NCBI GenBank assembly: GCA_963792205.1
Contig: CAWBVI010000004.1
Coordinates: 895,362-959,361 of the forward strand
DNA length: 64,000 bases
Reading direction: 5' to 3'
Source: an uncultured Microthrixaceae bacterium
GTDB taxonomy: Bacteria; Actinomycetota; Acidimicrobiia; Acidimicrobiales; DATDAH01
Shown piece after piece: positions 39,801 through 63,800 of the stretch. Position numbers: made by a program. The first letter of the stretch is position 1. Each line of letters starts with the position of its first letter.

Positions 39801-42800
39801 GGCGAAGGCCACCCCCGACAGGATCCAGAGGACGGGCTGATCGCCGAGCCGCCGGACGGCGAGCTGGCCGCCGATGGCGCCGACGACGACCGCGGCGAAG
39901 GCGGCGAAGCGGAGCTGACGGATGACGGGCTGGCGCAGGGTGAGGCGGCGGTCGATGGGGGCCAGCAGCACGTGGCGGGCGTCGGGCCCCTCGATGGCGA
40001 TCGGTCCGCCGCGAGCACCCGACCGGAGCCCGACCAGCAGCGCCAGGGCCACCGCGACCCCCACGACGTCGGGGCCGTCCCGCAGGACGAGCGAGGTCCG
40101 GTAGGGCCCGAGGCGGTCGCCGCCGATCCAGCTCGAGAGGGCGAGCACGACGACGATCGAGACCAGGGCCGTCAGGTAGACGTTGTAGAGGGCGTCGATC
40201 CAGTGGATGTCCGCCACCCGCTTGCGCCGGCGGGCCGCCCGCAGCTCGGCGAGCGCCGCGGCAGGGTCCGCGGGACCTATGGGGCGCTCGGGCACGGCCG
40301 ATCAGCGTATGGCCACGACCCCTCCGCTCGGCAGTCGGGACGAGCCGTCTCCCGGTGTCAGGAGAGCTCGCCGTGCTCCAGGACGTCGATGAGCTCGGGG
40401 TAGAGGCCCGTCCGGAGGGCGGTGGTCGCCTCCCGGCTGCCGGCCGCCCGGGCGGCGGCCCGCTCGATGGCCCGGGTCAGCACCTCGTCCTCGGCCACGG
40501 CCTCGTCGACGATGCCGGCCGCGACGGCCTCGGTCCCGCCCCACCGGCGGGCGGTGATGATGGCGTCGTGGGCGGTGGCGATCGGGAGCTTGGCCGCGAT
40601 CAGCCGGGTCATGCCCGGGGCGAGGGGGACGCCCATGTCGGCCTCGGGGAGGCACCAGAAGCCCCGGTCGGCCCGCATGACCCGGGCGTCGTGGGCCATG
40701 GCCAGCATGGCGCCGGCGGCGAAGGCGTGACCGTTGATCGCCGCCACCGAGTAGAGCGGCAGGCGCAGGAAGCGGGCGAAGAGGCGCAGGGCCTCGGGGA
40801 TCACGGTCCCGAGCGTCCCCTCCTCGATCAGCCGCTCGAGGGCGAAGCCGTTCGAATAGAACTTGCCGTTCCCGGTGGTGACGAGGGCGGCCGGGCCCTG
40901 CGAGGCCTCCACCTGGTCGAGGGCGGCGTGCCACTCCCCGACCGAGTCACCATGGAGCCGGTTGTCGTCGTCCACCATCCGGACCACGAACACCGTGGCG
41001 TCGCCGACGGTCTCCGGCTCGACCGCGACGAAGTCCGTCACGAGGTCGGGTCAGCGACCGACGGCGACGAGGACCGGGACGGCCTCCTCGGCGAGATCCG
41101 TGAGCTGCCAGGGGAGGATCCCCAGGTCGATGGTGATGAACACGGCCAAGGCCACGCCGAGGGCCGCGGTCCACGGGATCGGGAGCGGCTTGTCGGCCAA
41201 CCGGTCCTCGTCCTCCGGGCGGTCGACCAGGTACATGGCCACGATCACGCGGAGGTAGACGAAGGCGGTGATCACGGCGGTGACCATGGCCACGATGGCC
41301 AGCCAGTACGAGTTCGCCTCGACGGCCGCAGTGATCGACTCGAACTTGGCGAAGAAGCCCGACGTGAAGGGCACGCCGGCCTGGGCCAGGAGCAGGACGG
41401 TGAAGGCGAGGGCCAGGGCCGGCCGACGCCGGGAGAGGCTGTTGTAGTCGTCGATCGAGGTCCGGGCGTCGTGGTCACCGGCGACGATGGTGATGACGCC
41501 GAAGGTGCCGGCCACGATCACGGCGTAGGACGCGATGTAGAAGAGGACGGCCAGGGTCCCCTCGGCCGACGCGGCCTCGACGCCGAGGAGGATGAAGCCG
41601 GCGTGGTTGATGGAGGAGTACGCCATCATCCGCTTGACGTCGGTCTGGACCGCGGCCAGGACGGCCCCGACCACGAGGCTGAGGACGGCCAGGACGTAGA
41701 CCACGGGCTGCCAGTCGACCGCCCACTGGTCGAAGGTGGTGACGAACACCCGGATGAGGGCGGCGAAGGCGGCGGCCTTGACCCCGCCGGCCATGTAGGA
41801 GACCGCCGGAGACGGCGATCCCTGGTACACGTCCGGCGTCCACGAGTGGAAGGGCACGGCGGCGATCTTGAAGCCGAGCCCGACCAGCAGCAGCATGAGG
41901 CCGACCAGGAGCACCCCGTCGTCGAGCAGGACGTTCTCGGCCAGGAAGGCCGAGATGTCGGAGAGGTTGGTGCTCCCCGTGGCGCCGTAGACGAAGGCGA
42001 TGCCGTAGAGGAAGAAGGCCGAGGAGAAGGCGCCGAGGACGAAGTACTTGAGCCCGGCCTCCTGGGACTCGGTCCGGTGGCGCTGCATGGCCGCCATCAC
42101 GTAGGCGGCGATCGAGAGCACCTCGAGGCCGAGGAAGACGACGATCAGGTCGTTGGCGAACGCCATGGTGACGCCGCCCGCGGCCGAGAGCAGCATGAGG
42201 ACGTAGTACTCGGGGCCGTCGAGCCGCTCCCGACGCAGGTAGCTGTCGCTGAGCAGCGTGGTCAGGATCACCGAGACGCCGATGACGATGGTCACGAACA
42301 CGGCGAAGCGGTCGACGGCCACGGCACCGGCGATGGCGGTCGACGGGCCCTCGTCCCCGATCCGGTTCCAGAGGTAGACGGCCGTCCCGATGGTGGCCGC
42401 CGCGGTCAGGATGGTGAAGGCGGCGTTGAAGCCCCGGAACAACCGCTCCTTCATCAGCGACGACAGCAGGATGATCAGGACCGCGCCGACCGACAGGCAG
42501 AGGAGCGGCAGCAGCGCCGACCACGCGATGGCGGGGGTCTCGACCGGTTCGGGCACGTCGAGCTGGGCGAGGAGGGCGACGGCGCTCATCCGTGGCCCCC
42601 TTCGGACTCCGCCTCGGCCTCAGCGGGGCCGCTGGTGGCCACGTCGGGCTGGCGGTAGTCCGTGTGCTCCTCCAGGTGGGCGATGAGCTCGTCCACCGCC
42701 GGTTCGATGCGCTCGAGCGCCGGCTTGGGGTAGACGCCGAGGAAGAGGATCCCGACAAGGAGCGGGGCCATGACCAGCAGCTCCCAGCGGTTCATGTCGG

Positions 42801-60800: not shown

Positions 60801-63800
60801 ATGAACTGCTTGGGCTTCACCACGGTGCCCAGCCAGGCCGCGTCGACCTCCTGGAGGACGTAGTCGGCCCGGAACTCGGGCATGGGGGGGTTGGCGTCGG
60901 TGGAGGTCATGCGTCCGCCTTGACCAGGGGGCGGCCGTAGTCGGAGGTGACGGGCTCGGGGGCGGGGGCGGCCTTGCCCCGGTCCTGCCACGCGGCCCAG
61001 AGCTTGATCCACACGACGACGTACACCACGTGGATGAGCACGACGACGATGTCGCGCAGCGCGGTGTAGGGGATCTCGAAGGGGAGGTCGCCGAGGAGCT
61101 CGCCGGGCCCGACCAGGAACTTGTCGGGCCGCCAGCCGAGGTCGGAGTCGGCCCACAGGATCCACTGGTGGGGCACCACGCCGAACACCCAGAAGAGCGT
61201 GCCGAAGACGTAGACGGCGCCGAGCATGGCCTCGCCCCAGCTCGTCAGGCCGCCGGCGGGGCGTCGGGCCATCACGTAGAGGACGCCACCGATGAGCAGG
61301 ACGCTGACCAGCACCGAGGCGACGAATGCGACCATCTCCTGTCACCTCCTCGCGGTCTGGTCCACCGGGTTCCGACTTCGTGAATGCGATCACAATCGGC
61401 CTGGCCAAGGTTACCTCGCCGGGCCGGCCGGGGGGCGTCGTGGCTTGCCTGTGGCTGTGGTCTAGCACGACATCCCCGGAGCACACACATCGACGGAGAC
61501 CCTCCCGAAGGGCCTCTCGCTGCTTGGTCCGCACGGTGACCGCGGGCCTAGAGTGACCGTGCTCTGCCCAGGACGCCGCCGTCCAAGGACCCTGCACCCG
61601 GAGGAATGGTGACCGAGGTTCCCGACTACCTGCTCCAGCGCTCCCGTGAGCGCCGCGCCGCGCTCGGCTTGGGCGGCGACGACGGTGGTGAGGGCGCGGC
61701 CCCGGCCGCGGACGCGGGCGGCGGCGGTGCCCCGGCGACCACCTCGGCGGCGTCGGCCACACCGGCGGTCCCCGCCCCCGCACCGATCTCCCCCGGCGTC
61801 CCCGACCCCGTCCCGGCCGCTCCCCGGCCCAACGTCGAGGCCGCGCGGCGCCGGAAGCGCGTCCCCATCTGGGCCCTGCCCGTGCTGGTGGCCCTGCCGA
61901 TCTGGGGTTACGCCTACGCGGGCACGCTCGAGCCGCCCACCGAGGAGGCGTCCGGCGCCCTCGACGTCGGCGCCGACGTGTACGGGGCCTGCGCGAGTTG
62001 CCACGGCGCGGGCGGTGAGGGCGTGTCGGCCCCGGCCCTCGACACGGTCGGCGAGGTCTTCCCCGACGCGGTCACCCACGCCCAGTGGGTCAGCCTCGGC
62101 ACCGCCGGCTGGCAGGCCGAGGTCGGCGACACGTACGGCGCCACCGACAAGCCCGTCGGTGGTGGTGGCAACATGCCCGCCTGGGCCGACGAGCTCACGC
62201 CCGAAGAGCTGATGTCGGTCGTGATCTACGAGCGCGCCGAGTTCGGCGGCCTCGACCCGGTCGAAGAGGGGTTGGTCGACGAGGAGGGCAACCTGCTCGT
62301 GGTGTACGACGCCGAGACCGGCGAGCTGGTCGAAGCCCCCGCCGAGGGCTGAGTCGCTTGGCCCTGGACGCTGACGTCCTCGTCGTCGGCGGGGGGCCTG
62401 CCGGAGCGGCGTGTGCCTACTGGCTGGCCGGCGCCGGCCATGACGTGCTCGTCCTGGAGCGCAAGTCCTTCCCCCGCGAGAAGACCTGTGGCGACGGCCT
62501 GACGCCGCGGGCCGTGTACCAGCTCCAGGAGATGGGCCTGGCCGGCGGCCTCGAGCAGTACCACCGCTACGAGGGCCTCCGGGCCATCGCCCACGGGATC
62601 ACGCTGGAGATGCAGTGGCCCGAGCACCCCCGCTTCCCCAGTCACGGCTTCGTCGTGCGCCGGCGGGACCTCGACCAGATGGTGGTGGACCACGCGGTCG
62701 CCGCCGGGGCGCGGCTGCGCGAGCGCTGCGAGGCCGTCACCCCGTTGCTGCGGGACGGGCTCGTCCGGGGCGCCGTGGTGAGGGACCACGAGCGGGGCGT
62801 CGACGAGGAGCTCACGGCCCGCTTCGTCGTCGTGGCCGACGGCGCCAACTCTCGCTTCGGCCGGGCGCTCGGCACGACCCGGGACCGGAGCTACCCGCAG
62901 GGCATGGCGCTGCGGGGGTACTACGAGAGCCCGATGCACGACGACCCGTGGATCGAGAGCGCCCTCGACATGGTCGACCGCAACGGCAACTCGCTCCCGG
63001 GCTATGGCTGGATCTTCCCGGTCGGCGACGGGACCATCAACGTGGGGGTGGGCCTGCTGTCCACGTTCCGCGACTACCGGTCGATCAACACCAGCCACCT
63101 GCTCGATGAGTTCGCGCTGACCGCACCCGACCACTGGCAGATCGGTCCGGAGACCAAGGTGGGCGAGCCGACCGGCGGGCGGCTGCCCATGGCCGGCTCG
63201 GTCTCGCCCAAGGTCGGCCCGAGCTGGATCGTCATCGGCGACGCCGCCGGCTCGATCAACCCGTTCAACGGCGAGGGCATCGACTACGCCTACGAGACCG
63301 GCCGCATGGCCGCCGGCCTGCTCGACGAGTCGCTCACCACCGGGGACGCCCGGGCGCTGCTGACCTATCCGCAGCTGCTGGACGACGAGTACGGCCTCTA
63401 CTTCCGGGTGGCCCGGGCCTTCACCAAGGTCATCGGCCGGCCCGCCGTGATGCGGGAGCTCACCCGGGTGGGGATGCACAGCCGCTCGCTCATGGAGTGG
63501 GTGCTGCGCATCATGGCCAACCTGCTCCGCGAGGACGAGCTCGGCCCCGCCGAAGCGGCCTACGCCGCGGTCGCCCGCCTGGCCAAGCTCGTCCCCGAAC
63601 GCCCCGCCGCCTGAGCCCACGCCCCCACCCAGAGCCGCTCACGCCGGTAGGGGGTCGGACCAACCGCCGTAGGGCTCGGCCAGCGCCGCGGCCTCGGGCG
63701 GGCCCCAGCTGCCACGGTCGTAGAGGTGGACGGGACCGGCTGACCCGTCGATGAGACGGCTGACGATGCGCCACTGCTCGGCGATGGTGTCGGAACGACC

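Follow-up and report, generated by a model that had tools for sequence, protein, structure and literature searches.

Complex I and complex III genes are normally encoded and regulated apart. The subject of the present analysis is a stretch of 64,000 nucleotides (the window) from an uncultured bacterium of the Microthrixaceae (contig CAWBVI010000004.1, assembly GCA_963792205.1), in which genes of both kinds form one array: 21 genes in a row, all read from the minus strand, between 61335 and 41051. The first seven encode a membrane protein of 142 residues (TM142), a ferredoxin with two [4Fe-4S] clusters (Fd), cytochrome b6, subunit IV (SUIV), a Rieske protein, a dihaem cytochrome c (cyt c) and a second membrane protein (TM312), and are here called the b6c module. 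The remaining fourteen are nuoA to nuoN. The component families are all known, and what appears to be new is the fusion of the two gene sets throughout the order Acidimicrobiales, the one operator in front of the whole array and a module combining a ferredoxin with b6c genes and two orphan membrane subunits. Neither a joining of nuo with Rieske/cytochrome b genes in one operon nor the seven-gene module was described in papers found by full-text search of an incomplete library of the literature, which is a weak negative.

The complex I half resembles the usual bacterial nuoA-N operon, such as nuoA1-N1 of Streptomyces, in having 14 subunits in canonical order, overlapping or abutting junctions and a Rex-type operator at the head (PMC5355995). 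In the window, however, the operator and the presumed promoter are situated 5.3 kb 5' of nuoA, before the seven complex III-type genes, no intergenic space is left before nuoA, and nuoD is frameshifted into nuoE in this assembly. Pfam families were matched for each of the subunits NuoA to NuoN and the NADH-oxidising module is present (NuoE, PF01257; NuoF, PF01512 and PF10589; NuoG, PF13510, PF10588, PF22117 and PF00384).

The complex III-type half is closest to the Rieske/cytochrome b complexes of the APWY clade, which is related to b6f and to the b6c of Firmicutes, was called uncharacterised by Kao and Hunte in 2014 and has Ilumatobacter as one Acidimicrobidae member (PMC4122944). The cytochrome b of the window is split into b6 and SUIV, and SUIV carries the APWY Qo motif in the translated context SKAPWYFLG (SKAPWYFLGLQELL). 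Moreover the b6 subunit has the CxGG motif predicted to attach haem ci, as SYTLCLGG (motif definition as in PMC4122944), and its best solved relatives, found by a sequence search of the PDB, are the plant and cyanobacterial cytochromes b6 (173 bits). These features of the sequence place the cytochrome b in the APWY clade, although LCLGG differs from the motif usually reported there, WCMGG (PMC4122944). A Rieske subunit and a c-type cytochrome are encoded in the array as well. The account of Kao and Hunte covers cytochrome b only, and holds neither a seven-gene unit with TM142, ferredoxin and TM312 nor a fusion to nuo (PMC4122944).

With the bcc complex (QcrCAB) of the actinobacterial bcc-aa3 system the module has in common the phylum, the oxidation of menaquinol, which is presumed here, and a membrane-anchored dihaem cytochrome c replacing a soluble carrier. 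Nevertheless it is not a QcrCAB, as its cytochrome b is split and b6-like and scores 121 bits with NF050120 against a cut-off of 500. The gene order and the accessory subunits are also different, and the operon partner is nuo and not ctaE.

The R/b-2 and R/b-3 complexes of the anammox bacterium Kuenenia are similar in their b6-type core with haem cN and in one or more operon-encoded cytoplasmic iron-sulfur proteins (PMC12954380; PMC5600118). In the window the latter is a small two-cluster ferredoxin that lacks any domain for FAD or NAD(P), the c-type subunit has two haems and is not of the multihaem kind, and the host is, unlike Kuenenia, of the aerobic heterotroph type of Actinomycetota.

A further likeness is to the Geobacter proteins ExtP and ExtQ. 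The b6 subunit scores 307 with the ExtP model NF040969 (equivalog cut-off 290), whereas subunit IV scores 47.7 with the ExtQ model NF040970 and does not reach its cut-off of 150. No genes for a multihaem outer-surface conduit were found among the gene calls around the module, the flanks of which are nuo, cyt c and a gene for a MenJ-like menaquinone/geranylgeranyl reductase. An ExtP/ExtQ-type operon for selenite/tellurite reduction was rejected on the missed ExtQ cut-off and the unrelated gene context. The NCBI annotation nevertheless gives the name ExtP to the b6 orthologues of Nitriliruptoria (P0470, P0492, P0547 and others). It probably reflects a likeness of cytochrome b at the level of the clade and not a shared function, and it has a practical consequence, in that the automatic label "selenite/tellurite reduction ExtP", probably an over-propagated name, misleads the reader of the b6 gene.

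Conservation of the fused array and of the stand-alone module

Genes were called from third-position G+C and open frames, the G+C content of the window being about 70%, and Pfam supports the identity of every gene of the array except TM142 and TM312, which match no family. The junctions measure -4 nt (TM142/Fd), +36 (Fd/b6), +10 (b6/SUIV), +10 (SUIV/Rieske), -4 (Rieske/cyt c), -8 (cyt c/TM312) and +3 (TM312/nuoA), negative values being overlaps. Within nuo all are between -8 and +3 nt (nuoL/nuoM is -7 or -4 by the choice of GTG), and 36 nt is the largest gap anywhere in the array. The start of TM142 is preceded by AGGAGG. An earlier sequence-only reading had given the same junction lengths and the same AGGAGG, which were all reproduced, and had seen neither a terminator nor a promoter-sized gap between the modules; the two do indeed adjoin, and a classical promoter or terminator would not fit between them. 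It had also described 21 co-directional genes ending at 41051. Coordinates and strand stand, but the literal count in the window sequence is 20 open reading frames (ORFs), nuoD and nuoE being in one frame, and the co-directional run continues past 41051, where a gene for an enoyl-CoA hydratase begins 9 nt beyond the nuoN stop. Terminator-like matches were at chance level (6 against 3.8 +/- 2.0 expected, all within coding sequence) in a scan that is uninformative at 70% G+C, and when four regions at junctions or ends were folded as RNA no stable hairpin resulted, every z-score being above -1.5 and no region doing better than shuffled sequence.

Relatives were surveyed with one genome per species having an alignment to TM312. 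This gave 136 relatives, and 80 loci from GTDB species representatives were kept. Their labels are mostly Acidimicrobiales, Acidimicrobiia or, at the level of the phylum, Actinomycetota, and the named groups include Microthrixaceae, Iamiaceae, the marine MedAcidi group, Rhabdothermincola and Aldehydirespiratoraceae. Odd labels are borne by one bin named Actinomycetes and by two named Verrucomicrobiota, which were probably mis-binned. In tblastn searches with the window proteins, MenJ and a cytochrome c were found on one strand, followed by TM142-Fd-b6-SUIV-Rieske-cyt c-TM312-nuoA on the other, in every locus of sufficient length, the one exception being a local inversion (L063). An assembly chimera was rejected in view of the identical gene order in at least 80 independent assemblies.

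The gap between cyt c and TM312 has a median of -1 nt and is 10 nt or less in 78 of 79 loci, the largest being 20 nt. That between TM312 and nuoA has a median of +3 nt and is at most 10 nt in 67 of the 79. Both junctions are as tight as those inside nuo. Over the survey, identity falls to 32% for TM312 and 33% for cyt c and the genes beyond MenJ vary between loci, and therefore the adjacency has outlasted the surrounding synteny; its conservation (79/79 species-level relatives) is far beyond chance. A one-off rearrangement, which the sequence-only reading had named as the finding that would undo its argument, is not borne out, nuoA being within 72 nt of TM312 in all 79 loci.

Distant members of the ferredoxin family (30-49% identity) come from other Actinomycetota and were used to fetch metagenome loci. 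These keep the order of a small TM142-like membrane protein, ferredoxin, b6 (63-77% identical), SUIV, Rieske, cyt c and a TM312-like protein, the last with 30-43% identity and closing a stand-alone module. No match to nuoA was obtained downstream of TM312 in any of the 13 such loci with a TM312 match, and in the four of these loci for which ORFs were listed the next gene is on the opposite strand. The stand-alone module occurs in two clades, namely Nitriliruptoria (Egibacteraceae, Nitriliruptor) and another clade of Actinomycetota. Since the seven genes occur elsewhere without nuo, the array is an operon fusion specific to the Acidimicrobiales lineage, and TM142, the ferredoxin and TM312 are to be counted with the b6c module and not as linkers of complex I. 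The ferredoxin at the head of the array had been thought to strengthen the link to complex I, a view that does not survive the finding of the whole unit from TM142 to TM312 without downstream nuo in two clades.

On two contigs of Nitriliruptoria (one of Nitriliruptor, the other of Egibacteraceae) the module is followed by resA-ccdA-resB-ccsA, for cytochrome c maturation. On the Nitriliruptor contig (L168 90-9000) the genes rex-hemA-hemC-hemD-hemB...hemL are 5' of the module, with rex matching PF06971 and PF02629. Another locus of the group has nuoA-nuoB on the opposite strand at a distance of about 7 kb, where they follow MenJ. Such haem and cytochrome c maturation neighbours suggest that respiratory and haem genes have long stood side by side in Actinomycetota. 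Genes for System II cytochrome c maturation were seen either 3' or 5' of the module in Nitriliruptoria, and hemB-hemL near the array in Acidimicrobiales loci (L001 1-1800).

The Rex-type operator and the presumed regulation of the array

In Streptomyces avermitilis Rex binds operators of one kind at the promoters of nuoA1-N1, cydA1, atpI and rex, the footprinted atpI operator being TTGTGATACGGTTCACGA (PMC5355995). A box of equal form, TTGTGA-N6-TCACGA, which fits the 18-bp inverted repeat TTGTGAANNNNTTCACAA of the Rex operator (ROP), is present in the presumed promoter region of TM142. It is the sole match to TTGTGA-N6-TCACAA with one mismatch or fewer in the window (0.01 expected). The related loci, 1.23 Mb in all, gave 29 matches at this threshold, every one of them 5' of TM142 and none before nuoA. 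When two mismatches are allowed, 47 of the 51 relatives have a box within 250 nt 5' of TM142, the background rate being 0.0027 per 250 nt. The unfused clade that is most distant by ferredoxin identity has a perfect Rex consensus, TTGTGAAnnnnTTCACAA, at the equivalent place, and in the loci of the Nitriliruptoria type the box is found instead 5' of MenJ-nuoA-nuoB. As a separate nuo unit carries its own box and the Acidimicrobiales have a box only before TM142, the array would be one regulated unit. Of the indirect signs available, the single box is the best one for a common regulation, and probably a common transcription, of the fused array in response to NADH/NAD+.

The following model is proposed. 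An ancestral seven-gene operon, encoding a putative b6-type menaquinol:cytochrome c oxidoreductase of the APWY Rieske/cytochrome b clade, would have been joined head-to-tail to a nuoA-N operon in the ancestor of the Acidimicrobiales. The whole array would be transcribed from one promoter 5' of TM142, controlled by a Rex-type repressor site that senses NADH/NAD+, and stop/start translational coupling at nearly every junction would carry ribosomes through both modules. The NADH-oxidising, menaquinone-reducing enzyme and the menaquinol-oxidising enzyme would then rise and fall together with the NADH/NAD+ ratio, provided that menaquinone is the substrate and that Rex is the protein bound. The presence of the adjacency in relatives, along with an operator only at the head, makes co-transcription plausible. 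Taken as a whole, a lineage-specific operon fusion working as a single Rex-type-controlled unit is the likely explanation of this locus, and its mechanistic core, that is one transcript from the Rex-type-controlled promoter with stop/start coupling through both modules, seems reasonably probable.

If so, a whole environmentally abundant order, which includes activated-sludge bacteria of the Microthrix type, marine MedAcidi lineages and soil Acidimicrobiales, has fused both enzymes into one gene string behind a single redox-sensing control site. It would offer a natural system in which to ask whether expressing consecutive respiratory enzymes together has a bearing on their assembly, their stoichiometry or the formation of supercomplexes.

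Several points weigh against a single Rex-controlled unit. The core TGTGA-N6-TCACA is common to sites of the CRP/GlxR type, and the regulator could be a protein of the CRP family. No rex gene was found among the scanned genes of the window. The operator is in an intergenic region common to the divergent cyt c-MenJ pair and may serve these genes also, or instead. This pair is kept in most of the Acidimicrobiales loci with enough upstream sequence, the exceptions being about ten loci with no match to MenJ, one with no match to the cytochrome c (L065) and one with MenJ on the other strand (L085). A consensus scan for sigma-70-type promoters, which is uninformative at 70% G+C, gave no match anywhere, not even 5' of TM142. 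Actinobacteria often have promoters within coding sequence, and the array may have them too. Moreover the survey was conditioned on TM312 and leaves out Acidimicrobiia without this gene, and the conservation in 79 of 79 relatives reflects one ancestral event and not 79 independent ones.

This last point also speaks for another explanation, that the adjacency is a neutral historical accident and that the two modules have separate promoters, the one for nuo being inside the coding sequence of cyt c or TM312. All 79 cases go back to one event, the module stands beside other neighbours in other lineages (ccs genes, convergent genes), long actinobacterial operons often have internal starts, and in a minority of relatives the gap between TM312 and nuoA has widened to 40-72 nt. 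An accident would, however, hardly account for a junction held at -8 to +10 nt in most species while identity has fallen to about 33% and the flanking synteny has decayed. It would account no better for the finding that 1.2 Mb of relatives show neither a Rex-type box nor another conserved gap 5' of nuoA, nor for the box that the MenJ-nuoA unit bears where nuo is separate, as in the Nitriliruptoria-type loci. We consider the neutral explanation unlikely.

Two species have a Rex-like box elsewhere in nuo. In L058 (10612-11877) and L072 (about 6109) a GAF/histidine-kinase gene is inserted between nuoD and nuoE in the same direction, and the box ATGTGCAAGGATTCACAA is directly 5' of nuoE (L058 12013-12030), as if the downstream half had gained its own operator.

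The ferredoxin and the orphan membrane subunits

The ferredoxin belongs to a narrow family, of which 1.8 billion cluster representatives include 152 at E<=1e-10. Its gene is always immediately 5' of b6, and its identity of 77-95% across Acidimicrobiales makes it about as conserved as b6. The protein is presumably cytoplasmic, no signal peptide or hydrophobic helix being visible on inspection by eye, and this would fit a tightly bound cytoplasmic redox subunit. A paralogue of NuoI tying the module to complex I was considered and rejected, as the NuoI models score 37.7 against a cut-off of 113 and the best solved relatives are polyferredoxins.

The place of a ferredoxin beside a b6 of the haem ci type bears on how low-potential electrons reach enzymes of the b6f type. 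It has been proposed for the anammox Rieske/cytochrome b complexes that quinol is bifurcated, and cytoplasmic Fe-S/NAD(P) modules on such complexes have been proposed and modelled for Kuenenia (PMC12954380; PMC5600118). By analogy the ferredoxin could give the b6c complex a low-potential link, either by passing electrons of a cytoplasmic donor through haem ci to the quinone pool or by taking up the second electron of quinol oxidation in a bifurcation, and the fusion to nuo would then reflect a shared traffic of NADH or ferredoxin. This is suggested by the presence of the ferredoxin within the module in three clades of Actinomycetota, by its conservation, by the CxGG motif of b6 and by the Kuenenia proposals, which are a precedent for this reading and no evidence for it here. 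The window also contains an 11-subunit nuo cluster without nuoEFG. On the other hand no NAD(P)-binding subunit was found in the module with Pfam or NCBIfam, and since the module exists elsewhere without adjacent nuo, the ferredoxin says nothing specific on complex I. We regard a low-potential link of this kind as very improbable.

A bolder form of this idea is that the module represents an uncharacterised class of Rieske/cytochrome b6 complex, with a dedicated stoichiometric ferredoxin, perhaps anchored by TM142, wired to haem ci at the cytoplasmic face. In Acidimicrobiales it would share one Rex-controlled message with complex I and work together with it as an NADH-to-cytochrome c unit. On the present sequences this is highly doubtful. 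If true, a non-photosynthetic bacterium would have a built-in route from ferredoxin to quinone, or one that bifurcates quinol and reduces ferredoxin, and thus a natural and genetically fixed counterpart of the long-debated ferredoxin:quinone reductase activity of cytochrome b6f.

The two membrane proteins at the ends of the module are orphans. TM142 has no match in Pfam or NCBIfam and only spurious matches in a PDB sequence search, although its position is filled by a gene of similar size in all related loci. For TM312, matches were likewise absent from Pfam, NCBIfam and the PDB sequences. In its AlphaFold2 model (predicted local distance difference test score, pLDDT, 80) three transmembrane helices are predicted beside an alpha/beta domain of about 200 residues, and the model gave no PDB fold match at E<=0.001. 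From the secondary structure of this model and the positively charged C-terminus we infer that the large domain faces outward, together with the Rieske and cyt c heads. Those of the 410 homologues of TM312 that bear a source name are from Acidimicrobiales.

The sequence-only reading had suggested that the coupling may support a fixed stoichiometry or a supercomplex. In this view complex I and the b6c complex would assemble as a I-III supercomplex of fixed stoichiometry, for which the orphan proteins TM312, TM142 or both could be the bridge, co-transcription and translational coupling being a consequence. The cyt c/TM312/nuoA junctions, tight as those inside nuo and conserved across the order, agree with this, as does the length of NuoA, which at 152 residues is about 30 longer than the NuoA of the second nuo cluster of the window (121 residues). 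The accessory subunits, however, are found where no nuo follows, and they pre-date the fusion and were not invented as linkers. With its predicted topology TM312 would expose its large domain at the outer face, clear of the peripheral arm of complex I, and a shared operon neither sets stoichiometry nor shows physical contact. Furthermore the documented respiratory supercomplex of actinobacteria is of the III-IV type (bcc-aa3), not I-III, and bcc-aa3 structures were among the PDB matches of the b6 search. A I-III supercomplex is thus a distinctly unlikely explanation of the fusion, and until an association is demonstrated it is best to regard complex I and the b6c complex as separate.

Feature coordinates, the nuoD/nuoE frame and neighbouring genes

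Positions of the array, its operator and adjacent genes in the window
Feature	Position	Strand	Basis or remark
MenJ-like menaquinone/geranylgeranyl reductase gene	62085-63614	+	Pfam and NCBIfam
Divergent cytochrome c gene	61552-62352	+	Pfam and NCBIfam
Rex-type operator (ROP-like inverted repeat), TTGTGATCGCATTCACGA	61378..61395	-	43-60 nt 5' of the TM142 ATG
TM142, first gene, 142-aa membrane protein with about 3 hydrophobic helices	60907..61335	-	ORF; third-position G+C 0.97
Ferredoxin, 138 aa, two CxxCxxCxxxCP motifs	60494..60910	-	Pfam Fer4 families
Cytochrome b6 (N-terminal half of split cytochrome b), 263 aa	59666..60457	-	PF00033 (159 bits); PF13631
Subunit IV (C-terminal half of cytochrome b), Qo motif APWY	58867..59655	-	PF00032
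Rieske [2Fe-2S] subunit	57999..58856	-	PF00355; CPHLGC...CPCHGS
Membrane-anchored dihaem cytochrome c	56953..58002	-	PF13442 and PF00034 in two stretches; CAGCH, CGRCH
TM312, last gene of the b6c module	56022..56960	-	No known family
nuoA-N, 14 complex I genes	41051..56018	-	Pfam
nuoA	56018-55560	-	Pfam
nuoB	55563-54961	-	Pfam
nuoC	54957-54415	-	Pfam
nuoD (frameshifted at 53113-53108)	54418-53083	-	Pfam
1-nt insertion near the nuoD 3' end	53105..53113	-	Three-frame translation; alignment with 10 relatives
nuoE	53083-52472	-	Pfam
nuoF	52472-51132	-	Pfam
nuoG	51139-48722	-	Pfam
nuoH	48722-47529	-	Pfam
nuoI	47529-46927	-	Pfam
nuoJ	46927-46376	-	Pfam
nuoK	46379-46062	-	Pfam
nuoL	46058-44175	-	Pfam
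nuoM	44181-42586	-	Pfam
nuoN	42589-41051	-	Pfam
Enoyl-CoA hydratase gene	40358..41041	-	PF00378

In the window nuoD and nuoE form one open frame of 648 codons (54418-52472). The extra base responsible is at 53113-53108 and is found in the window only, which reads GTCGATCCCGATCATGG where ten relatives have GTxGA-CCCGATCATGG. The canonical end of NuoD, VDPIMGEVDR followed by TGA, sits in the +1 frame, its TGA overlapping the ATG of nuoE, and the insertion costs nuoD its last 7 codons and its stop. The alternatives are an assembly indel and a real fusion of NuoD to NuoE. In the relatives nuoD and nuoE are separate genes, and an indel is probably the simplest reading because the closest relatives are metagenome bins with long contigs, one of which has a split nuoF.

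The enoyl-CoA hydratase gene is also 3' of nuoN in relatives, at distances of 88 nt (L087) and 762 nt (L086). It is possibly read through from the array but is probably not a functional part of it, and nuoN is taken as the functional end. Beyond it by 62 nt is the gene of a 577-residue protein without family match (38562-40295, minus strand), followed by genes for an ABC ATPase, a carbamoyltransferase and an SxtJ-like protein.

A second nuo cluster, with 11 subunits (A, B, C, D, H, I, J, K, L, M and N; 23896-34121, minus strand) and without nuoE, nuoF and nuoG, is situated some 7 kb 3' of the array and is also present in the close relative L086. Cyanobacterial complex I-type enzymes without nuoEFG accept electrons from ferredoxin. 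A weak Rex-like site with 2 mismatches, TAGTGATCGCCCTCACGA, lies at 34134-34151, 13-30 nt 5' of nuoA of this cluster; it was not found in L086, the one relative checked, and may be due to chance.

Further away, positions 831-11851 (minus strand) are an ordinary region with rpoB, rplJ, rplA, nusG, an extracytoplasmic function (ECF) sigma factor gene and tuf, with nothing unusual, and positions 13488-14638 (plus strand) encode a GNAT acetyltransferase and a Fe/Mn superoxide dismutase.

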